Virus record (IMG/VR): IMGVR_UViG_2840949845_000002
Span: 22,434-86,433 of that record
DNA length: 64,000 nt
Direction: 5' to 3' (one strand)
Source: a virus
Taxonomy: Duplodnaviria; Caudoviricetes
The position numbers were made by a program, and so were the translations under genes. Under the pieces are notes generated by a model. That model was not told the origin of the DNA. It saw nothing but the letters and a program-made list of their open reading frames with translations, and made no database searches. Shown here one piece after another: positions 4,531 through 26,112 of the stretch (its first letter is position 1; each line of letters starts with the position of its first letter).

Positions 4531-5532
4531 TCAGTCTTCAGCGACCAAACAAGCGGTTTGACCGGCCAAATCGGCCCTGTTGTCGTCATAGCGCAGGGTC
4601 ACGCGCGGGTCTCGATGACGTGCGAAACTCTGTACGGCCCGAATGTTGCCGTTTGTTGCATCCAATGCGCTGGTGATAGCGGCATGGCGCAAGCCGTGCG
4701 GTCTCGTCTGGATCCCGATATCCTCACCAAGCAGCCGCACAATCTGGTGGACAGCCGTGCCCGTCAGACGGCCATCGCCTGCACCGGCATTGTCCAACCG
4801 GAAGAAGATTGGGCCGGGCTGACGACCGCGCACATCGATCCAACTATCCAGCGCCGCTTTGGTGGCGGCCGGCAGCGTGATCGTTTCGCGCTGGTGACGC
4901 CCTTTACCCAGAATCGACAGCGTGGCAGTTGCCGGGTCATAGTGCTCCATATTGAGGGACACCACTTCACCACGCCGCAGCGCCGTATCGTGCAACAACC
5001 GAACAATGGCAGTATCTCGCACTCCCTTGGCGTCTGCCCGATCCTGCGCATGGTTGAGGATCGCGCGCACCCCATCCCGGCCTGGGCCGCGTGTGTCGCG
5101 GTATGAGGCACCATCGACGTTCTCCACTTCAAGATCCCAGCTGACCAGGCCAATCGTGGCGCCCAGCTTGACGAGTGAACGCAGAGCAGCGAGCCGACGA
5201 TTGATGGTCGCAGGTGACAGCCCACGCGCCAGCAGCGCCGACCGATAGCCGAGTGCAAGAGCGTTGGCTTGACCAGCAGAGAGGCCCAGCAGCTCGCGGG
5301 CGACACGATCAACGGTATCGGCATACACCGCCATACCAGGTTGGCCTGCGACGAATGCTCGGAAATCCTCCAGATCGCGGCGGTAAGCCGCGATGGTATT
5401 GGCCTTTCGACCGGCCAAAAAGCTGTCGATCAACCGCTCTTGCAGAGCGCCGATGGGCAAGGCATCGCCAAGCCCGACCGGCACCCTGGCAGGCACTGTA
5501 CCGTCGGAGCGCGCATCAATATCATTGTGCAT
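4531..5532 (-). CDS. Tyrosine recombinase (XerC/Cre-like resolvase type)
   Basis: SAM-like N-domain (TINRRLAALRSL); catalytic R (ALRRGE), K (GKG), HGLRH, RH, LRY. Confidence 0.9.
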   Translation of the reverse strand: MHNDIDARSDGTVPARVPVGLGDALPIGALQERLIDSFLAGRKANTIAAYRRDLEDFRAFVAGQPGMAVYADTVDRVARELLGLSAGQANALALGYRSALLARGLSPATINRRLAALRSLVKLGATIGLVSWDLEVENVDGASYRDTRGPGRDGVRAILNHAQDRADAKGVRDTAIVRLLHDTALRRGEVVSLNMEHYDPATATLSILGKGRHQRETITLPAATKAALDSWIDVRGRQPGPIFFRLDNAGAGDGRLTGTAVHQIVRLLGEDIGIQTRPHGLRHAAITSALDATNGNIRAVQSFARHRDPRVTLRYDDNRADLAGQTACLVAED

Positions 5533-13997: not shown

Positions 13998-16223
13998 TCA
14001 AAGACGAACAGGAATATCAATAACCGGCGCAAGTTGCTCAAGTGTAGTTCTGTAACGGCGCACCACCTGATCGTAGATGTCTGGCACTCGTGGAGCTTTT
14101 ACAGTTACGATAAGTGCATACCTCAGCTTTTCGGCGGGCCTAAAATCTTGTCCGCCTGCTCGAGCGTTATAGTGGATATCAAAAACAGGATCTTTCAAGC
14201 TCTTTCCTCGGAATGACTGGGTATGATGCAAACAGTTATCCCACTTGTGTGCGTCGCGACGTAGTTCATCCTCAGTGGCATAGAGCTTGCCCTGCTTAAA
14301 GAAGCTTGTTGTTTTAGGGTGTATGGATTCCCCATCAATCTTATCTTTATTTGGTCGGAATAATACCTCAAGTCCTGCTCTTGTATAGTTGCTTGGGTGA
14401 TGTGGATCTACAGTGGATGCGTAGCAAATCGTTGCTGATATCTCAACCATTCCACTTAATTGATCGGCTGGGACAGGAATTTGAGCTCTGATGTATTTGG
14501 ATGCGCTTATTTCACCCTGGTAAACAACCCGAACCACGCCGGGAGCGCACACAACAATTTCCTCAAGATCCCGAGCTACGCGTCCCCAGCCAACTTCCGT
14601 ACGTGGATAGCCGCTCGGGGTGCTCGTATGAACAAGCAGTGCATTGATCGCCAACCCTCGGAGAGAATCGCCAAAGTGAGCCCTGATGCCCATCCCCATG
14701 CGCATTGTGTCTGGAGCGGCAAAGCTTGTCCCACCGGTCGGCATGAGTGTTGGGACTGAGCCAGGCCCCAGCACCAGATAGGGCTCGGCTATAGAACCAC
14801 CGAAGCTGACGAGCGAGGGCTTGACTCGACCAGGGCTTCTTCCTGGACCTATTGAACTGTAGGGTGCCCTTTTCCATGCAGAACTGCGAGAATCAGCAGC
14901 GCCAATTGATAATGCATTGACACAATCAGCTGGAACTTGAATGCGGTTGTAACCGTTATCCGCGTCGCGCTCTCCTCCATTTCCTACCGCGATAGTCGCC
15001 AGGGTTTCACCATCTGATAGGTATTCATCAAGAACTGCTGTCCACGCGTGGATCTCATCATCCTCGACTGGCAACTCTGGGCCGATACTAAAGTTGATAA
15101 AATCATAACGCTTACTTGCGAGTGCATCTTGAATACGCTGCAATGTTTCATAAAGCTCCAACGGATTTTGGTTCAGATCTCCGTCAAGAACTCTGTAGTG
15201 ATCAACTCGTGCATACGGAAGGGGTAAAGGAAGTCCAGGCGTAATATGGCCGAAAAGAGCTGCCGATGTCACATTAAGCCCGTGCTCAAGATAGTCGTCT
15301 TCAGCTGGACCAATGCCACTCGGTTCGATAGCTGTTGCCCAAGCAGAAACTGGATGATCATGAGGCAGTCCACCATCAAAGATGGCCGCCTTGATAGAAG
15401 GATCAATAGGCGGTCCTTTGGGCAATGCAATTGACGGCGTAGATGGGATTGACGACGAACGGAAAGGTGGTCGTAACAGCCGAAGCTTTGGCATTTCTCT
15501 AACCGCCCGAACAAAGCTATAGGCTGCTAGATATTCTGCTTGCTTGCGAGAAGCGCTGACAGGGACAAAGCTCACGCCCGACGATGTGATTCTATGATCA
15601 AGGTCTGGCTTAAATCCTAACCCGTGAACGTAATCAACAAAACCCTCTAGGACGAAAGAATCGACCATTGATCCGCCACCATGCAGGGCCACTTCAAAGA
15701 CAATTTCTTCCGATTCCGATGTAATACTCTTCAGTTTTTCGGCAGGTTCTGGTGCCGACAACTGTTCGATGGCGGTTAGTTCGTCAGCTCCCGACGATCC
15801 AGCCCACCAATCCGGGATTGACGTCGACCAGTCACGAAACGCTCGTCGAGATCCCGCGACGAAGAGCTCCGTCGTAAGAGCTTCCTCCGGTTCCCGGCCC
15901 TTGCTGCGCGCTGCTGGGAGTATTCTACGAGGACGACTTCCAACGGCTCGAAGGCCGACCGCTGTCAAGAGCTTGCCGGGAAAATAAGATTTCGCAATGT
16001 ATTCTGGATGCAAGGTCATCCGCATAACAGCATGATCATGCGGACAAGCTTTCTCTGGTAGCGCATCAAGGCTCCTAACCGCTGCCGATAACATTGGCGT
16101 AAGGCGCGACTGCGCTTGAAAGAACGTGTATGGGGCCTGTTTATCAGGATTTCCTGTGCGAACGATTACTGGCTCCGTTAATCGCTCACCCTTGCCCAGC
16201 AGAAAGTTTCTCTTGTTCGACAT
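13998..16223 (-). CDS. ietS: S8 (subtilisin-like) serine protease, IetS-like
   Basis: Catalytic triad motifs IFDGG, EHGLNV, GGTSFAAP; oxyanion motif AVGNGG; directly downstream of an AAA ATPase. Confidence 0.8.
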   Translation of the reverse strand: MSNKRNFLLGKGERLTEPVIVRTGNPDKQAPYTFFQAQSRLTPMLSAAVRSLDALPEKACPHDHAVMRMTLHPEYIAKSYFPGKLLTAVGLRAVGSRPRRILPAARSKGREPEEALTTELFVAGSRRAFRDWSTSIPDWWAGSSGADELTAIEQLSAPEPAEKLKSITSESEEIVFEVALHGGGSMVDSFVLEGFVDYVHGLGFKPDLDHRITSSGVSFVPVSASRKQAEYLAAYSFVRAVREMPKLRLLRPPFRSSSIPSTPSIALPKGPPIDPSIKAAIFDGGLPHDHPVSAWATAIEPSGIGPAEDDYLEHGLNVTSAALFGHITPGLPLPLPYARVDHYRVLDGDLNQNPLELYETLQRIQDALASKRYDFINFSIGPELPVEDDEIHAWTAVLDEYLSDGETLATIAVGNGGERDADNGYNRIQVPADCVNALSIGAADSRSSAWKRAPYSSIGPGRSPGRVKPSLVSFGGSIAEPYLVLGPGSVPTLMPTGGTSFAAPDTMRMGMGIRAHFGDSLRGLAINALLVHTSTPSGYPRTEVGWGRVARDLEEIVVCAPGVVRVVYQGEISASKYIRAQIPVPADQLSGMVEISATICYASTVDPHHPSNYTRAGLEVLFRPNKDKIDGESIHPKTTSFFKQGKLYATEDELRRDAHKWDNCLHHTQSFRGKSLKDPVFDIHYNARAGGQDFRPAEKLRYALIVTVKAPRVPDIYDQVVRRYRTTLEQLAPVIDIPVRL

Positions 16224-16226
16224 GTT

Positions 16227-17345
16227 TTAATCCTCAAATTTATCATGCGTTCTGCATGCGTTCCTGATGGTATCTCTGCTGATCCCCGTAAGCTCAGACA
16301 CTTGCCGTTGTGATAAGATATCTCCAAGAACCATTTCTGAAGCAATTGCCAGTCTATTAGGTTTGTCGATTTCCATTATTCGTTCTCGGAGAATTTGTTG
16401 CAGATGAATTGATAGAGGTTGCTCACTTAGCGCTGCTGCCCTTCTGGCCGCATTTACCCGTCTCTCTACGTCACTGAAAGACAGCCCATGGAAAACTATA
16501 GACATCGCTCGCACCCAATGATTTGACTTTTCAACGTGCTCAGTTAATAGGGCGTCGAGAAGAGCCTGAAGACCAGATATATCTGGCATCGGAAAATCAA
16601 CCACAATTTCAAATCGACGCCAAACGGCAGGATCTAGCAATCCAGCATGATTTGTTGCTGCAATTAGCAAACCTGTTGGCGGCCAGTCATCAATTTCTTG
16701 AAGAAGAACAGTTACAAGACGCTTTAGCTCTCCAATTTCACTTCCATCATCCCGTCTTTTTGCAATTGCATCCAGTTCATCCAAAAGAAGAACGCAATCT
16801 ATTTTCTTTGCATAATCAAGAACGTTGCGGATGTTGTTCCCTGTGCGCCCCAGGTAACTACTCATTACAGCGGCCAGATCAAGAACAAGCAGCGGCCGCC
16901 CCATTTCATGAGCAAGCCAGCGGGCTGATAGCGTTTTTCCCACACCCGGAGGGCCTGTGAAAAGCACGGTACGTGTTGGGTTGAGCCCCACAGCGGCAAG
17001 GCGGTCGGAATTGAGACGCTCAAGCATTAATTGGCTCAATCGCTCCTTGATCTGAGGGGCAAGAACCGGCGGATGATCAATGCCTGTGACCGTCTCTACT
17101 CGGAGAAGCTCCAGTCGAGAGTCCACATCGACTGGGAGAGGTTGCTCTGCCTGCCGACGGAGAGGGGAGGACCTCGTCGGCGCCTCGCGCAACAGCGATG
17201 TTAAGCCATCCCCGAGTTCAGGAACCTGTTGCCCGTACTTCTTTGCAGCACGATGGATGAAGAGTTGCACATCCTGCTGGCGCCCTGAGAGCGCCAAGCG
17301 GGAAAGGCGGACGAAATCAGACGAAATTTCCTTTTGGAAGTCCAC
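16227..17345 (-). CDS. ietA: AAA+ ATPase, IetA-like
   Basis: GPPGVGKT, LLLDELDAIAKRR, AATNH, LDPAVWRRF; 3 nt from the S8 protease; GTG start inferred. Confidence 0.85.
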   Translation of the reverse strand: MDFQKEISSDFVRLSRLALSGRQQDVQLFIHRAAKKYGQQVPELGDGLTSLLREAPTRSSPLRRQAEQPLPVDVDSRLELLRVETVTGIDHPPVLAPQIKERLSQLMLERLNSDRLAAVGLNPTRTVLFTGPPGVGKTLSARWLAHEMGRPLLVLDLAAVMSSYLGRTGNNIRNVLDYAKKIDCVLLLDELDAIAKRRDDGSEIGELKRLVTVLLQEIDDWPPTGLLIAATNHAGLLDPAVWRRFEIVVDFPMPDISGLQALLDALLTEHVEKSNHWVRAMSIVFHGLSFSDVERRVNAARRAAALSEQPLSIHLQQILRERIMEIDKPNRLAIASEMVLGDILSQRQVSELTGISRDTIRNACRTHDKFED

Positions 17346-17499
17346 TTCACACCGGCATATGAGGAAAACAGGAACGAAATGAGTATGGCGGGATGGACTA
17401 AAATTCGCAACATGTTTTGGTATGTCGTCCATTTCACCGGGCGATGCCGCGCGGTGCGCGGCGGCACGTCCAGATCCAGCCCAAGCTGCGCCGCGCCCC

Positions 17500-17751
17500 T
17501 CACGGCCCGCCCTCATCGCGCCGGTCCACCGGCGTCGTCAACCGCATCTCGCCCAGCGCCTGGGCCGCGAATCGCTTCACCTCGCTGCTGAAGGTGTAGC
17601 CGGGGGTCTGGCCGACATGGCCCGGCGGCGCGCAGGACGGGCGCAGGAAATCCCACAGCACGAACACCCGGTCGCATCGCAAAACCCGGCGGATGCTGTC
17701 GGGGAAGCGATAGACGCCGTTTTCCCAAATATCATCAGGGCTTAGGGGCAT
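17500..17751 (-). CDS. Small phage hypothetical protein
   Basis: 83 aa ORF coupled to the replication initiator. Confidence 0.5.
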   Translation of the reverse strand: MPLSPDDIWENGVYRFPDSIRRVLRCDRVFVLWDFLRPSCAPPGHVGQTPGYTFSSEVKRFAAQALGEMRLTTPVDRRDEGGP

Positions 17752-19270: not shown

Positions 19271-19516
19271 CGCGTTGCCTTCCTTCGCGGAAACGTGAAC
19301 AGGGGGGCCGTTTGTGCATGAGAAATCGGATGGTAAGACCACCACACCCGGATGCCGCAGCCTTCCGATGAATAACCTCTGGCATGCTTGACCAGATTGC
19401 GCCGAATCAGTTCAGCGGCGCCGCTCTTGACTGCCGGGGAACGCTCCTGATGGCGTCGGTCAGACATGAGGCCATCCCCAATTGACCGGCGAGCGGCGGT
19501 CATCTCTGATTCGCCG

Positions 19517-19804
19517 TCAGCAATCACCAGCTTTCTCCCTTTGCTTGGCTGTTGCTGCGTCACGCAAAGCGAGCGATTGTTCCCCGGTCAACAACCCTGG
19601 ATGAGGGGCTGGCGTTGGAGCCACAAAATCATTTGGGACCAGGCGATCCATGGCCTCCAGCGTCTGGAGCTTTGGATTTCCAGACGGCGATAGGACTTCG
19701 TTGACGGCGTACCAGCTGATCCCAGCCGCCTTCGCTGCCTGATGGCGGTTTAGGCCAGAAGACAGGAAATAGGAGCGAATGCGGTGAACGGCTTGGTCGA
19801 TCAT
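19517..19804 (-). CDS. Cro-like HTH regulator
   Basis: LNRHQAAKAAGISWYAVNEVLS..GNPKLQTLEAM; divergent from the repressor across the operator cluster. Confidence 0.7.
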   Translation of the reverse strand: MIDQAVHRIRSYFLSSGLNRHQAAKAAGISWYAVNEVLSPSGNPKLQTLEAMDRLVPNDFVAPTPAPHPGLLTGEQSLALRDAATAKQREKAGDC

Positions 19805-19812
19805 GGTTCTAA

Positions 19813-19880
19813 TTTGCGCTATAGCGCAAACTTGTCAAGCGCCATAATCACGCTACAGCGCAATCGCGTTCTAGCGCAAA
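19813..19880. promoter_or_regulatory. OR-like triple operator
   Basis: Perfect 18-bp palindrome tttgcgctatagcgcaaa 19813-19830; variants cgctacagcgcaa 19851-19863 and tcgcgttctagcgcaaa 19864-19880. Confidence 0.8.
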
Positions 19881-19897
19881 ATCCGCACAATGGAGAT

Positions 19898-20284
19898 ATG
19901 GCTACAATAGATGTCGAAAGAGAGCGTCGCCGTTCAGCCCTGATCCAATTTTGGGAAACGAACCGGCACGCCTTGAAGAGTATCCGCCAATGGGCTGAAG
20001 CCTCGAAGGTGGGATACAATACTCTCAATGAATTTATCCGACGCAAGAAGGATAAAAACATGCTTGCTGACACCTACGAGAAACTTGCTCGTGGGGCCAG
20101 CATTCTTTTAAGCCGCGATGTAACAATTCATGAGTTGTTGAATGAGGAAGCTTTTGACGAAAAAAGCGAGGCAACTCAACGCATAGAGCGTATCGCGCTC
20201 CTTATTTCTCATCTTCCCGATCATGAGCAAGAAGCTTTCGAGGTTGTCCTCCAGGGGCGAGTTCAAGCCCTCGGGAAGTCTTAG
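19898..20284 (+). CDS. CI-like HTH repressor without an S24 peptidase domain
   Basis: SIRQWAEASKVGYNTLNEFIR HTH, 128 aa, GGAG RBS. Confidence 0.75.
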   Translation: MATIDVERERRRSALIQFWETNRHALKSIRQWAEASKVGYNTLNEFIRRKKDKNMLADTYEKLARGASILLSRDVTIHELLNEEAFDEKSEATQRIERIALLISHLPDHEQEAFEVVLQGRVQALGKS

Positions 20285-20399
20285 AAAAACGCCAAAAAGC
20301 AATTCTTTCAACTTTTTCAAGATCGGCATCAGTGAGACGTGACAGCAGCTCAATAATTTTCTTTCTTCGATTGGCCGCCCGGCTGGTCCCAGATGTCAC
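20202..20399 (-). CDS. Putative small protein resembling the repressor C-terminal helix pair
   Basis: GAGGT RBS 7 nt before GTG 20399; RRKKIIELLSRLTDADLEKVERIAFWR aligns with the CI C-terminus. Confidence 0.45.
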   Translation of the reverse strand: MTSGTSRAANRRKKIIELLSRLTDADLEKVERIAFWRFSKTSRGLELAPGGQPRKLLAHDREDEK

Positions 20400-20427
20400 T
20401 GCACTTACCTCTGCTTGCGAAATCAAA

Positions 20428-20459
20428 TTCACCCGACCGATACGCGTCGGTCGGGTGAA
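20428..20459. terminator. Perfect 13-bp hairpin (terminator/attenuator candidate)
   Basis: ttcacccgaccga-tacgcg-tcggtcgggtgaa. Confidence 0.55.
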
Positions 20460-20463
20460 CAGC

Positions 20464-20904
20464 TTATGCGGCCAATGGCTCAACCCAGAGCCAGCAGCCT
20501 TCGGGCGTAAACGGCCCTGCGTCCTTGGCGCTCACAGCCTCATCATAGGTTGGCATCTCGATTCCAGCCGCAGCAAGCGCGGCCCGCGTGTTGTCCCAGG
20601 CCGTCACGCGCTGAGGCCCTTCCGGCGGAAAGGGGTCGTGCGCAATCAAATGATCGTCACCAAAAAGCTGCTCGCTGATGCGATGCACGAAAAGATTGTC
20701 GAGAAGAAGGACATGCATGGCCTGATCCGCCGCATAGGGCAGAGCATAATAGCGGCAAGGCTGGTGCTTCTGCGCATCGCTCAAGATTGCTTTAAGGTGA
20801 CGGAAGCCGGTATCCCGTAATTCCTCTGGATGATTGAAGCGCTTCACCATGGCATTTTCATGCTTTGTGAAGTCAACATCGATGACATTCTTAGCCTTTT
20901 CCAA
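20464..20904 (-). CDS. Hypothetical protein with a DUF1399/GRDP-like motif
   Basis: LPYAADQAMHVLLLD...LFG...IAHDP resembles P..VD..WH..ILDT...FG..IHHDP; AGGAG RBS. Confidence 0.6.
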   Translation of the reverse strand: MEKAKNVIDVDFTKHENAMVKRFNHPEELRDTGFRHLKAILSDAQKHQPCRYYALPYAADQAMHVLLLDNLFVHRISEQLFGDDHLIAHDPFPPEGPQRVTAWDNTRAALAAAGIEMPTYDEAVSAKDAGPFTPEGCWLWVEPLAA

Positions 20905-20913
20905 TATGCTCTC

Positions 20914-21966
20914 CTATGATTTGCGCATCTTCGCGCGTGTTATCGCCGAAATTTTGAAGACCAACGCAGCCAAGCTGGTTAAATCTCCGGCAGCAAACTT
21001 GGTTCCTCGCAGCTTGTCTTTGATGTTCCTGATCTGCGTATAGACCGTCGCCTCGCTGGTTGACCGACGCCGGGCGATCTCACCTGGCCCAAGCCCGGAG
21101 CCAATGAGAGCTGCGACGCGGGCTTCAGCCGGGTGCAAGCCGAGCGCTCGCTCCAGCGCAGACGCGATCGCAGCATCGTCTTCTCCAAATCGAGAGATCA
21201 CAATAATTGCTGTTCCAAGTGATTGTCCGCTGGAGATTGAAGCAAAATGAACGCCACCACTGTATGACAGTGGCAATACTTTATAGAAGTCCTGGAGAGT
21301 GGCTGCGCTCGATACGGCGCAGTCCAATTTGGCGCAGTCATCCGGGTCTGTGGCTCTAATTCTTCCAAAATCATCGAACATCATGGATGTTTCAGATGAT
21401 ATCAAATCGATGAAGCTATCATTTAAATGAAATCTATTCATATTGACATCAAAAATGCCCACAGCTAAATCCAATAAATTTAATGAACAATGCATATTAT
21501 TCAAAAAATCATTGACGGTTAACATTTCCTCAAAAGAATTTCCACGAATCTTTGTATTGATGTAATTCTCAACACCAGATGTCTGAATACAGACTCGCGA
21601 TTGGACGCACGTCCCATCTCCGTATAGACGATGAGAAACAGACATCCTTCCAGATGGATATTCACTGATCCAATCCAGTCCTGTGTTAAGTCTTCGCGCA
21701 ATTCGGACGTTGGATATCCAATCGGCGGGATTGGCGACGGCAACCCTGTTTCCAATCAGGCCAGCTTCAAGGAGCTTCCAGAACAGCGATTCATGTGTCT
21801 CTGAGGTGTAGTCAGAGACAGGGGCAATTCGTCTTTGAGAACCGTTTGCCCAGATAATTTGGTCTGTCGGGCTATACACCAAAACCGCTCCTCCCAACGG
21901 CTGTGAGGCGCGGATAAAGAGAATTGCATCCAAATTCAAATCAGAAGGTAAGGGCAGATTGTCCAT
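20914..21966 (-). CDS. PAS-domain(s) plus LuxR-type HTH transcriptional regulator
   Basis: VLVYSPTDQIIWAN and AVGIFDVNMNRFHLNDSF PAS-like starts; C-terminal LHPAEARVAALIGSGLGPGEIARRRSTSEATVYTQIRNIKDKL. Confidence 0.8.
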   Translation of the reverse strand: MDNLPLPSDLNLDAILFIRASQPLGGAVLVYSPTDQIIWANGSQRRIAPVSDYTSETHESLFWKLLEAGLIGNRVAVANPADWISNVRIARRLNTGLDWISEYPSGRMSVSHRLYGDGTCVQSRVCIQTSGVENYINTKIRGNSFEEMLTVNDFLNNMHCSLNLLDLAVGIFDVNMNRFHLNDSFIDLISSETSMMFDDFGRIRATDPDDCAKLDCAVSSAATLQDFYKVLPLSYSGGVHFASISSGQSLGTAIIVISRFGEDDAAIASALERALGLHPAEARVAALIGSGLGPGEIARRRSTSEATVYTQIRNIKDKLRGTKFAAGDLTSLAALVFKISAITRAKMRKS

Positions 21967-22108
21967 TTATCACAACCGGAACTAAGACAAATTTAATGTT
22001 ACGCTACCACGTATGGAATGTGACCAGTACCAAAATTTTGGTATACGGTGTGAGAATGTCGTTTTCTGGGGCCTGGCTTTGGTTTTCCAGGCGTTATCAG
22101 GATAAAAA

Positions 22109-22158
22109 TTGCGCTATAGCGCAAACATGAGCCTTGATAAATTTGCGCTGTAGCGCGA
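22109..22158. promoter_or_regulatory. OL-like double operator
   Basis: ttgcgctatagcgcaa 22109-22124 (same core as OR) and tttgcgctgtagcgcga 22142-22158. Confidence 0.8.
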
Positions 22159-22191
22159 GCATGCCTCTTCTCCTGATGAAGGGCGAGCAAA

Positions 22192-22527
22192 ATGGATAGG
22201 CGCGACGAGACGGATTGGCATCATTCCCCCAACGGCAGCACGCCGTCCCACCGACTCAGCCTCTTCAACCAGCGGCGTGCGTCCATTGAGGCGCAATTCG
22301 CCATGGGCGCGATCGGCATCGCCAAGCGGCGCGATCTTCTGATCGCCGCGCGCGACGACGCTGGGATCACGGGCATGCGGACCAACGCCAAACCGACGGT
22401 TCCGCTGGGGTTGGGAGCGAGCGAGGAGAGTGAGCGGCGGCGGCGGCGGCGGGCGGACCAACGTCGGTACGCCCGCAAGCAGGCCAGTGATGCCGTTGCG
22501 CCGATGGAGGTGGGCAACCATGGCTGA
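22192..22527 (+). CDS. Arg-rich early hypothetical protein (N-like position)
   Basis: First ORF after OL; contains ERRRRRRADQRR. Confidence 0.45.
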   Translation: MDRRDETDWHHSPNGSTPSHRLSLFNQRRASIEAQFAMGAIGIAKRRDLLIAARDDAGITGMRTNAKPTVPLGLGASEESERRRRRRADQRRYARKQASDAVAPMEVGNHG

Positions 22528-23468: not shown

Positions 23469-23732
23469 GTGGCAGCTAAGGTTTCGGATCTCGTTGGGCT
23501 TCCAAACTGGCCACGCATGCTCAGCCGCGATCAGGCCGCACGCTATGTCGGCGTCTCGCCAGTGCAGTTCGACCGCGAGGTTTCGACGGGCCGCTGGCCA
23601 ACGCCAGAGCGGCGCGGCAGCCGAGTCACATGGGATCGCCGACTGATCGACAGGGCGCAAGACAAGAACAGCGGCATCGTGGCAAGCTCGGAGTCGTCGG
23701 CGCACGAGCCGACGGTTGATCCGTGGGCGTGA
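23469..23732 (+). CDS. Excisionase / AlpA-like HTH
   Basis: WPRMLSRDQAARYVGVS..FDREV..GRWPTP...VTWDRRLID; directly upstream of int. Confidence 0.7.
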   Translation: MAAKVSDLVGLPNWPRMLSRDQAARYVGVSPVQFDREVSTGRWPTPERRGSRVTWDRRLIDRAQDKNSGIVASSESSAHEPTVDPWA

Positions 23733-24919
23733 CCGTGGGCAAGATTGAGGTTGATCTACCGCGCTACGTCATAGCCAAGCGTCGCGGCGACCGCTTGGCC
23801 TTCTATTTCCAGGTCCCGAAGCGCCTTCAGCCCGAGGGCTGGCCATCGGGCGCCATGCGGCTGAAGGACAGCCAAGGCGTCGCCATCGAGGAGCCAGCCG
23901 AGGCCATCAGACGTGGACGCGAGCTGAACGAGATGCTGAACCGGGCGCGCGCGCAGGTGGCCGCAGGCCCGATCCAGGGCACTTTGCCGTGGCTGATTTC
24001 CGAATACCAGCACTCGGACAAGTACCGGAACCGCGCCGAACAGACGCGCTACCAGTACGACCTGATCGCGCGGATGATGATTGCGTGGTCAAAGGAGAAG
24101 AACCACCCGCAAGTCGGGCAGATGACGGTCCCGTCGGCTTTGAAGTTCCTCGACCAGTTCGAGGACCGACCGACCTACCGGATTCGTGCCGCCGCCTTCG
24201 GATCGGTCCTCTGGAATTTCGGTCGCCGACTGGGTGTGGTGTCCGTCAACGTGTGGAAGGACCTCGACCTGGAGGCGCCGGATCCGGATGTCCATATCTG
24301 GTCCGACGAGGAGATCGCCGCCGTCGTCGCCAAGGCCGACGAGATGGCCCGCGCCAGCGTCGGCACCGCCGTGATGCTGGCCTCCGAATCCGGCCAACGG
24401 CAAGCCGACGTCCTCGACATGCGCCGTGGCCGGGAATGGGACGGCGTCACCCTCCGCCGCGTCCAGAACAAGACCAAGGCGTATGTGACGGTGCCGGCAA
24501 CCAAGCTCCTCCTTGATCGGCTCGCCAGCCTCTCGAAGGACAACCTCCTCCTCGTGGCCTCCGAAACGACCCGGCGGCAGTGGCGCCAGCAGACATTCAG
24601 CCGGACCTTCCGCGAGATCGCTGACGCCGCTGGCTTCCCCCAGATCGAATTCCGGTCCCTGCGGGCCACCTGCGTGTGCCGCCTCGCGTCGGCCGGGTGC
24701 TCGATTCCGGAAATAGCCAGCATCACCGGCCACACGCTGGTGTCCGTGCATCACATCCTGAAGCACTATTGGCGACCCGACAGCGACCAAGCCAGGAATG
24801 CGATTTCCAAGGTCGAAGCGTTCCGGCTGTACCCAGTCACTTGGACTTGGAGAGAGGTGGGATTGGGTGGGATCTGCGGGGATGTCGTGGGACGCGTTGA
24901 AAATCGGGCGTTTTCCTGA
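23723..24919 (+). CDS. int: Phage integrase (tyrosine recombinase); last ~30 codons come from the inserted Mu-like end
   Basis: SGQRQAD, QNKT, RSLRAT, ITGH, KHY catalytic motifs; the sequence after ...ISKVEAFR (24827) does not look like integrase. Confidence 0.85.
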   Translation: MGVTVGKIEVDLPRYVIAKRRGDRLAFYFQVPKRLQPEGWPSGAMRLKDSQGVAIEEPAEAIRRGRELNEMLNRARAQVAAGPIQGTLPWLISEYQHSDKYRNRAEQTRYQYDLIARMMIAWSKEKNHPQVGQMTVPSALKFLDQFEDRPTYRIRAAAFGSVLWNFGRRLGVVSVNVWKDLDLEAPDPDVHIWSDEEIAAVVAKADEMARASVGTAVMLASESGQRQADVLDMRRGREWDGVTLRRVQNKTKAYVTVPATKLLLDRLASLSKDNLLLVASETTRRQWRQQTFSRTFREIADAAGFPQIEFRSLRATCVCRLASAGCSIPEIASITGHTLVSVHHILKHYWRPDSDQARNAISKVEAFRLYPVTWTWREVGLGGICGDVVGRVENRAFS

Positions 24920-25563: not shown

Positions 25564-26112
25564 TCAAGCCCGGCGTTTGCTCGATGCGGGATCGGCGGCG
25601 GCGGCGCGGAGTTCCTGGCGAAGGGCGGCGGTGACTTCGCCGACCTCGGTCAAGCGGTCGTCGGGATCGGTCACTGTGGCGACGATCCGATCATGCTCCT
25701 TCGCCGCCCGCTCCGTTGCTTGATGGATGGCTATCGAGACGCCCATCTCCTTGTAGATCAACAAAATCTTCTCGGTTAGCCGCCCCATCAACCGGGCGTC
25801 AGTTGCGGGCGCAAACGTCTCGGCTGTGGCGGTCGGCGCAGTTGACGCAGCAGCGGCGTCGCCGGGCCGCATCGAGCCGTTTCCGGTCGCCAACCAGTCG
25901 AGTGAGATGCCGCAGACCTGAGCGGCAGCGACTATTCCGGACCAGCCAGGGTCGGACGCACCAGACAGCCACTTTTTTACACCAGACAGGGAGGCACCCG
26001 TCGCCTTCGCCAACTCCTCCTGCGTCAAACGCCCCTTCATAGCCAGTCGGAGGCGGTCGCCGAAAGCTTTCCGGTTCGAGCCAAGATCCGTAAAGCGATG
26101 ATCGTTATCCAT
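25564..26112 (-). CDS. Mu-like repressor (XRE HTH)
   Basis: LTQEELAKATGASLSGVKKWLSG.SDP...ISLDWLATG; divergent from ner. Confidence 0.85.
   Translation of the reverse strand: MDNDHRFTDLGSNRKAFGDRLRLAMKGRLTQEELAKATGASLSGVKKWLSGASDPGWSGIVAAAQVCGISLDWLATGNGSMRPGDAAAASTAPTATAETFAPATDARLMGRLTEKILLIYKEMGVSIAIHQATERAAKEHDRIVATVTDPDDRLTEVGEVTAALRQELRAAAADPASSKRRA

Follow-up and report, generated by a model that had tools for sequence, protein, structure and literature searches.

A candidate antirepressor resembling the C-terminal helices of its neighboring CI-like repressor in an integrative element of Azospirillaceae

Most of the small proteins that control the decision for prophage induction lack annotation and have usually been found singly, by genetics. 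The antirepressors of Gifsy phages are reportedly controlled by LexA and leave their repressor uncleaved, and Tum of coliphage 186 is likewise said to be a LexA-controlled antirepressor; to our knowledge, antirepressors of this type are not copies of the tail of their repressor. SinI of Bacillus subtilis, a small protein that is homologous to the helix pair of the repressor SinR and encoded next to it, inactivates SinR, according to the available part of the source (PMC3163267). In arbitrium Bacillus phages, AimX is a small helical antirepressor with an extended transcript antisense to the repressor open reading frame (ORF), and the repressor AimC consists of a helix-turn-helix (HTH) domain, a linker and a C-terminal helical oligomerization domain, with AimX modeled in place of the second repressor tail, as described in the accessible portion of a preprint (bioRxiv 10.1101/2025.11.23.689978). 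In the transcription factor-small ORF (TF-smORF) modules of plasmid-like phages, a small ORF that is turned on by an adjacent phage regulator, LuxR-type regulators included, inactivates cI without proteolysis, resulting in SOS-independent induction, as the available excerpt of the original study reports (Silpe et al. 2023, PMC10432266). Here, we describe a 65-codon mini-gene that converges on and overlaps the gene for a CI-like repressor in a 64,000-nucleotide stretch of the IMG/VR virus record IMGVR_UViG_2840949845_000002 (positions 22,434 to 86,433; hereafter the window, that is, the whole stretch of DNA that was analyzed, to which unlabeled coordinates refer). We put at roughly 0.6 the probability that the encoded mini-protein is a dominant-negative antirepressor, pairing with the repressor as SinI does with SinR.

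The mini-protein and the repressor tail

The repressor gene, cI, occupies 19898..20284 on the plus strand, from an ATG at 19898 to a stop codon ending at 20284, and encodes 128 amino acids; the name CI is a functional label and does not denote family membership. The AlphaFold2 (AF2) model of the protein (predicted local distance difference test score, pLDDT, 86.8) shows residues 2-80 folded into a helical HTH domain, which a disordered linker (81-90) connects to two C-terminal helices (91-104 and 108-126), the latter pair encoded at about 20168-20275. In a Foldseek search, the PDB entry closest to this model was SinR in its complex with SinI (1b0n_A; a weak match, E 0.066 over 108 columns), followed by other XRE-type regulators. 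CI matched no family in Pfam, PHROG or NCBIfam, and because no S24 self-cleavage domain was found in it, either with Pfam or in the AF2 model, RecA would not be able to inactivate it directly. Distant relatives of its N-terminal domain are fused to Peptidase_S24 in two genomes, G041 (L037, 1489-2238; Peptidase_S24 41.2 bits, Cro/C1 HTH 30.1 bits), of the same family as the window genome, and G496 (L028, 979-1734), of another family. Judged by their domain composition, these relatives are classical self-cleaving repressors, and the short-tailed CI looks as if it had arisen from a self-cleaving type of ancestor by a domain swap. With a helix pair in place of S24, CI would therefore need another route of inactivation.

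The mini-gene lies on the minus strand at 20202..20399, starting with GTG (20399-20397), spanning 65 codons and closing with a TAA that ends at 20202. A Shine-Dalgarno sequence, GAGGT (20411-20407), stands 7 nucleotides (nt) before the GTG, and the tail-to-tail overlap with cI is 83 nt; an earlier sequence-only reading of the window, which had proposed that the product mimics the C-terminal helices of CI, had placed all of these features correctly. Codons 1-38 (20286-20399) make up a conserved two-helix core that lies wholly outside cI, and codons 39-65, which overlap cI, encode a tail that is not conserved and is predicted to be disordered. The AF2 model contains helices at residues 3-20 and 24-46 joined by a turn at 21-23, with pLDDT of 86-92 for residues 11-40 and below 50 for residues 51-65, and the predicted turn falls where the CI turn aligns.

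No match was obtained in a Foldseek search with the mini-protein model, and no family match in the Pfam, PHROG (including the Ant and Tum families) and NCBIfam libraries; for the mini-protein and CI, Pfam returned nothing at E <= 0.1 except two chance-level rows. Profile searches of the PDB found no sequence relative of either protein among solved structures and no Sin chain. The only genuine match in direct homologue searches was a near-identical 65-amino-acid protein, P0002, which had been called as a gene product on another, near-identical contig and differs from the mini-protein by two changes. Matches to two giant repeat proteins (P0007 and P0008; E 1e-10 to 9e-5) were set aside as spurious: P0008, the one examined, aligns through a repeated LamG-like strand-helix motif, ...RxL[ST]xx[EQ]IxxL.... 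A short helix-cap motif repeated many times, as in P0008, can add up to a misleading E-value. We are confident, at a level short of certainty, that the 65-codon ORF is a real gene.

The sequence-only reading had reported an ungapped alignment of 28 residues of the mini-protein with CI, with 9 identities, and had cautioned that so short an alignment could be due to chance. The alignment was reproduced, with a BLOSUM62 score of 29, and the best local alignment is in the same register and longer (mini-protein 6-31 with CI 90-115, 10 identities, score 38). For the window alone, the caution was well placed: the best 28-mer score was matched by 16 of 5000 shuffles, the identity count by 90 of 5000 and the ungapped high-scoring segment pair by 14 of 1000, and the Smith-Waterman p was 0.01-0.02, so that the match of mini-protein and CI tail, at p of about 0.003-0.02, is suggestive and not decisive. 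Taken by itself, a window-only p of ~0.01-0.02 would also fit a chance open frame, or the decaying relic of an old inverted duplication, without present function; GC-rich genomes often have open antisense frames, and the protein is absent from the family libraries searched.

The hunt for homologous loci was conducted with CI, since direct searches with the mini-protein had given just the one near-identical protein. Within the family, a first CI alignment matched in 8 of 130 genomes and a wider one in 9 of the same 130; the order-level search took in these 130 genomes again and hence contributed no out-of-sample loci, and 2 of 401 genomes of a class-wide sample contained a match. Scans of viral contigs and of JGI metagenome contigs with the CI alignment, and a DNA search of 40 relatives, yielded no match. 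The comparison was based on eight complete loci with short-tailed CIs from Azospirillaceae: the window, another locus from a different contig of the window genome, a locus of Azospirillum griseum, which belongs to the same GTDB genus as the window genome, and loci of five other genomes. A locus truncated by the contig end (L025/L036 of G073) was excluded from all counts. In the second locus of the window genome (G000 contig 2, 94532-94903; L026/L029), the CI is 41% identical to that of the window and has a tail that shares a six-residue run with the window mini-protein.

The CIs of the eight loci are 30-63% identical, and an opposite-strand, convergent ORF of 44-72 codons is present in every one of them, starting 115-160 nt past the cI stop and reaching 29-122 nt into cI; by our reading, a purine-rich ribosome site precedes the ATG or GTG in seven. 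Conservation among relatives had been named in the sequence-only reading as a check on its proposal, and this presence in all eight loci is in line with it. The mini-proteins of the window and A. griseum score 8.2-8.9 standard deviations (z) over shuffles, and many of the mini-proteins are no longer detectably alike among one another.

Tests of likeness across the loci used just the part of the mini-protein that is encoded outside cI. The best local match within the full-length cognate CI falls at residues ~84-123, in the same register, in seven of the eight loci (per-locus p 0.0008-0.15; Fisher p 4e-8), and reversed sequences score below the real ones in all of them. In a profile comparison of L-INS-i alignments with hhalign, mini-protein residues 11-41 were paired, in the register first proposed from the window, with CI residues 95-125 (P 6e-5, compared to P 0.29 for a reversed-profile control), and the observed score of 24.7 was reached in none of 300 column shuffles (mean 7.6, maximum 12.2). 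The resemblance to the CI C-terminal helices that had been proposed from the window is thus upheld by the set of loci. Every mini-protein ranked its own CI first or second of the eight, and the sum of cognate scores was reached in 5 of 20000 random pairings. Because the cognate CI ranks first or second while many mini-proteins are no longer detectably alike, mimic and target appear, from these comparisons, to change together. An ORF kept in all eight loci at this divergence, with cognate-specific likeness and with no column shuffle approaching the observed score, argues against a chance frame or relic. We consider it highly probable, if a shade less so than the reality of the gene, that the mini-protein is a paralogue of the CI tail.

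Origin of the mini-gene and constraint on its core

As had been noted from the window, the two aligned segments are encoded by different DNA, at 20178-20261 and 20287-20370, which are symmetric about ~20274. In every locus, the center of symmetry of the two arms falls 5-53 nt before the cI stop codon ends. An inverted duplication of the cI 3' end should leave just this geometry, and the mini-gene probably arose by such a duplication. Identity between aligned codons at positions 1, 2 and 3 is 52, 61 and 26%; choosing the alignment at the protein level inflates positions 1 and 2, and what matters is that identity at position 3 is at the level of chance. Identical residues use the same codon in 14 of 68 cases. 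An RNA hairpin joining the two arms was considered and rejected, the fold of 20170-20380 being no better than shuffles (z -0.58), with no stable structure. Given third positions at chance and no RNA hairpin, the likeness is maintained at the protein level.

These observations bear on the possibility that the functional element is an RNA, either antisense to the cI 3' end or a cI 3' untranslated region with a hairpin, and that the ORF is incidental. The 83-nt overlap with cI and a hairpin located at 20427-20460 are compatible with an RNA function, as are RNA-library contigs that span 20234-20394, for which the strand is not given; the contigs of this library (run X7) cover 19985-20394 and 20538-21000, leaving a gap over the hairpin, and DNA carry-over is possible. 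A resemblance to the CI tail that holds for amino acids and not for third codon positions, which are at chance, and the lack of a predicted stable fold point the other way, as does the retention of ribosome site, start and open frame in eight diverged loci across which the extent of the overlap varies. In the AimX system, moreover, a stop-codon mutant lost function, according to the accessible part of the report (bioRxiv 10.1101/2025.11.23.689978).

Natural variants were taken from four contig sets, three of DNA and one from an RNA library, all of them 95-99+% identical to the window. Synonymous and non-synonymous changes number 13 and 1 in cI, 11 and 5 in the 146-amino-acid gene located upstream of the mini-gene, 1 and 5 in the part of the mini-gene that overlaps cI, and 1 (D24) and 3 (S6N, R21L and F38I) in the 114 nt outside cI. 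Of the six changes in the overlap, five leave the CI protein unaltered, and the other one is the sole non-synonymous change of cI; with changes in the overlap silent in cI and not in the mini-gene, the tail of the mini-protein is evidently unconstrained. The 114-nt core carries 4 changes, whereas the synonymous rate of its neighbors, cI and the 146-amino-acid gene, would by a rough estimate give ~14. Its substitution density is roughly between one quarter and one third of the neutral estimate, from which we take the core to be constrained. This reduced density speaks against a chance frame or relic, for which the ratio of three non-synonymous changes to one synonymous change in the core could be cited, and on the whole an ORF without present function seems very improbable. 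The synonymous sites of the core rarely change (1 change), as an RNA function would require; given the protein-level likeness, we consider it quite unlikely that the RNA is the functional element.

Regulatory setting and proposed mechanism

In three of the eight loci (L020, L022 and L024), with CIs that are 30-38% identical to one another, a perfect GTTC-N7-GTTC box, which we take to be the alphaproteobacterial LexA box, is found on the mini-gene strand, 28-43 nt ahead of the start codon, in two of them directly after a TTGAC(A/G) hexamer. Four such boxes occur in the 64-kb window and seven across 29 loci, and by our estimate, the chance of finding three in 60-nt windows is of the order of 1e-6. 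The lexA gene of the window genome itself has a perfect and a 1-mismatch GTTC-N7-GTTC within about 75 nt upstream of its ATG. Promoters of this kind aimed at the mini-gene in three loci are a further argument against a frame without function. The four box-less loci with enough sequence have a regulator gene near the mini-gene (about 0.3-0.6 kb), of the LuxR type in the window and A. griseum, the XRE type in L023 and the Crp type in L026; none was seen among 9 neighboring ORFs of the three LexA-box loci, a small sample. The regulator gene of L026 is a divergent Crp/FNR-type gene 317 nt upstream of the mini-gene. Beside the LexA-box promoter of L020 (G089), on the opposite strand at 2207-2743, is a gene for a SocA/Panacea-domain antitoxin-like protein (E 1e-19).

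In the window, the mini-gene closes a leftward unit opened by the gene of a 350-amino-acid LuxR-like regulator (20914..21966, minus strand). This protein has a LuxR/GerE-type C-terminal HTH (GerE E 0.01, below the cut-off) and an N-terminal part that is possibly PAS-like (Atlas structure rows with TM < 0.5, a lead only). Next in the unit is the 146-amino-acid gene (20464..20904, minus strand), which has no Pfam family. Relatives of its product occur in 12 of the 130 family genomes, and in several of the corresponding loci (L006-L017) small LuxR-type regulator genes follow. These relatives elsewhere precede LuxR-type genes with no mini-gene after them; therefore, the mini-gene travels with cI and not with the 146-amino-acid gene.

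Directly downstream of the 146-amino-acid gene, between its stop codon and the mini-gene, is a GC-rich, terminator-like hairpin on the minus strand (20427..20460; 13-14 bp stem, 6-nt loop, tail TTGATTTCGC), 27 nt from the ribosome site. A. griseum has a hairpin at the same place, quite different in sequence and without the T tract. The possibility that the hairpin is the DNA site of the LuxR-like protein was rejected, given that the A. griseum sequence differs while the HTH regions are nearly the same. With no LexA box near and the hairpin so close, transcription of the window mini-gene must come through the hairpin from upstream. A single 1-mismatch GTTC-N7-GTTC site in this region of the window (19795-19809) overlaps the start of the cro-like gene and is probably due to chance.

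On its other side, cI is divergent from the cro-like gene (19517..19804, minus strand), which encodes a small HTH protein of 95 amino acids with weak PHROG repressor matches (E 0.02-0.08) and leads to the replication genes. Between the two genes lie three operator-like sites (19814-19829, a perfect palindrome, 19848-19863 and 19864-19879), completing the layout of a cI/cro switch. A second, predicted pair (22109-22124, identical to 19814-19829, and 22143-22158), 2.3 kb away, separates the leftward unit of LuxR-like, 146-amino-acid and mini-genes from a rightward unit of orf111, DUF7168, xis-like and int genes. The GCGC-N4-GCGC-type motif accounts for 5 sites in 64 kb (0.26 expected), with a spacing of 34 bp in both regions (34-35 bp when locus L003, 6158-6208, is included), and A. 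griseum has the same layout at both operator regions. The same repressor thus probably controls the integration and excision genes, too.

In six of the eight loci (the window, 19880-19900, and L019, L020, L021, L022 and L024), a -10-like hexamer (CACAAT, TACAAT, GAGAAT or TAAGAAT) lies 6-8 nt before the cI ATG and leaves no room for a normal ribosome site. The hexamer being so close, with no space for a ribosome site, this suggests that the cI mRNA is leaderless. The cI mRNA transcribed from PRM of phage lambda is leaderless.

By its gene content, the cI switch sits in a prophage-like integrative element, with genes for an integrase (23723-24919) and excisionase-like, DUF7168, replication initiator, ParA-like and Rha/Ant-like proteins; no virion genes were seen among the ORFs scanned at 5.6-32 kb of the window. 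The cI gene, the mini-gene, the 146-amino-acid gene and the 350-amino-acid LuxR-type gene form a low-GC block (47-51%, compared to 62-70% for most of the rest). Another low-GC pair within the element (13998-17516) encodes an S8 subtilase-like protein (741 amino acids; phrog_3964, E 8e-149) and an AAA ATPase (429 amino acids; phrog_3757, E 1.5e-102), which may represent phage-borne accessory or defense-type cargo. Flanking the element, at 4531-5532 and 25564-26112, are another tyrosine integrase and a distinct HTH repressor of the CI type (Phage_CI_repr, HTH_3), an arrangement that suggests neighboring or nested mobile elements.

We propose that the CI helix pair is the dimerization or oligomerization module of the repressor and that the mini-protein would take the place of the second repressor subunit at this pair. 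The resulting heterodimers would bind the GCGC-N4-GCGC-type operators poorly, leading to derepression of the cro/replication unit and of the xis/int unit. Transcripts of the mini-gene, which extend antisense into the final 83 nt of cI, may strengthen this outcome. The input would vary among relatives, with a LexA-box promoter, and thus the SOS response, in three loci and an adjacent transcription-factor gene in four. In the window, the unit that ends in the mini-gene would be shut by operator-binding repressor during lysogeny; once it fires, the mini-protein would strengthen derepression, the LuxR-type regulator being a candidate for its primary input. A CI without S24, SinR as the top PDB match and the LexA-type box in three of eight mini-gene promoters all support the antirepressor role that the sequence-only reading had put forward.

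A true paralogue of the CI tail could also act as something other than an antirepressor, for example, as a modulator within CI oligomers that affects cooperativity or immunity specificity, or with another partner. The evidence of paralogy and of a real gene fits such a role equally well, and the window mini-gene has no stress-responsive promoter. However, LexA-box promoters in three of eight loci, combined with a repressor without S24, are the classic setting of a derepression inducer, and the known mimic precedents, SinI and AimX, are all antagonists; we consider such a role unlikely.

Several results count against the antirepressor mechanism or blunt the evidence for it. Heterodimer formation and the oligomerizing role of the CI tail are posited by analogy. 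The cognate scores of L023 and L026 are non-significant, a first hhalign attempt with plain MAFFT alignments gave only E 0.039, and the shuffle nulls lose helical periodicity, for which the reversed and column-shuffle controls compensate in part. The start codons of the mini-genes in relatives were picked by hand, and comparison of the window and A. griseum mini-proteins by composition-adjusted BLASTP aligned an unrelated stretch at E 3.7. There is no perfect LexA-type box in the window at 19400-22400, and the window mini-gene has no recognizable promoter of its own. What mainly fails to favor a protein-level reading is the variant counts of the core: three non-synonymous changes to one synonymous are too small a number to demonstrate purifying selection on the protein, and the low synonymous count fits a constraint on RNA equally well.

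The antirepressor reading can be taken further, to a self-made antidote: an antirepressor born by inverted duplication of the last ~35 codons of the repressor, which still overlaps its parent and tracks its interface residues, so that each mimic would act best on its own repressor, with an exchangeable sensory input (a LexA box, or LuxR-, XRE- or Crp-type regulators). We offer this wider proposal tentatively, at slightly less than even odds. If it is true, such an antidote would give element-specific induction in cells with two such elements, as in this genome.

Because the mini-gene is a copy of the tail of its target, it can be recognized by sequence alone, which translates into a search rule: short convergent ORFs that resemble the C-terminus of an adjacent repressor without a cleavage domain. 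The family forms a natural series: a single repressor/mimic pair is combined with different inputs, mimic and target apparently co-vary, and dominant-negative specificity thereby becomes testable. For Azospirillum, a genus associated with plants, it also contributes a repressor/antirepressor module; a search of the literature on Azospirillum prophage repressors returned no paper on such a switch among the matches listed.

Comparison with known systems

Three of the loci (L020, L022 and L024) resemble the Gifsy and Tum type of induction in combining an SOS-box promoter, a small protein and a presumably uncleaved repressor. The window differs from this type in that its mini-gene has no LexA box and its product no PHROG match to Ant or Tum. 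With the TF-smORF modules, and with Qtip of phage VP882, the window locus shares an unannotated small ORF near cI and a transcription-factor gene nearby, a likeness of adjacency only. The small ORFs of those modules are counter-oriented to the regulator, whereas the regulator of the window is on the same strand as the mini-gene, with the 146-amino-acid gene and the hairpin in between; they are also not reported as cI-like in the available excerpt of the study (PMC10432266), unlike the window mini-protein with its resemblance to the CI tail.

The likeness to SinI/SinR lies in the combination of an XRE-type HTH repressor that ends in a short C-terminal helix pair with an adjacent gene for a small homologue of that pair. 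No sequence relationship between the two systems was detected with Pfam or among PDB chains, however, and the Foldseek E-value is only 0.066. SinI/SinR is a chromosomal biofilm switch, whereas the window pair appears to form a lysis/lysogeny-type switch of a mobile element in an alphaproteobacterium. The sinI gene lies upstream of sinR in the same direction. The window genes, in contrast, are convergent and overlap.

AimX/AimC shares with the window pair a small ORF that is convergent with and antisense to the repressor gene (the antisense overlap measures 83 nt in the window and ranges over 29-122 nt among its relatives). The arbitrium Bacillus phages belong to a different phylum, and no sequence relationship of AimX/AimC to the window pair was found. 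No Pfam or PHROG row for the neighboring genes pointed to AimR or AimP, for which no targeted search was made. The input also differs, being arbitrium peptide signaling in AimX/AimC and a LexA box or a neighboring regulator in the family described here. AimX is characterized by its fold, and not as a paralogue, in the accessible portion of the preprint, whereas the window mini-protein is detectably homologous to the tail of its own repressor. Judging from these sequence comparisons, the mini-protein probably works like SinI and AimX and is a member of neither family; what would set it apart is that the mimic derives from, and still overlaps, the gene of its own target, that it shows signs of co-varying with that cognate repressor and that its inputs are exchangeable.

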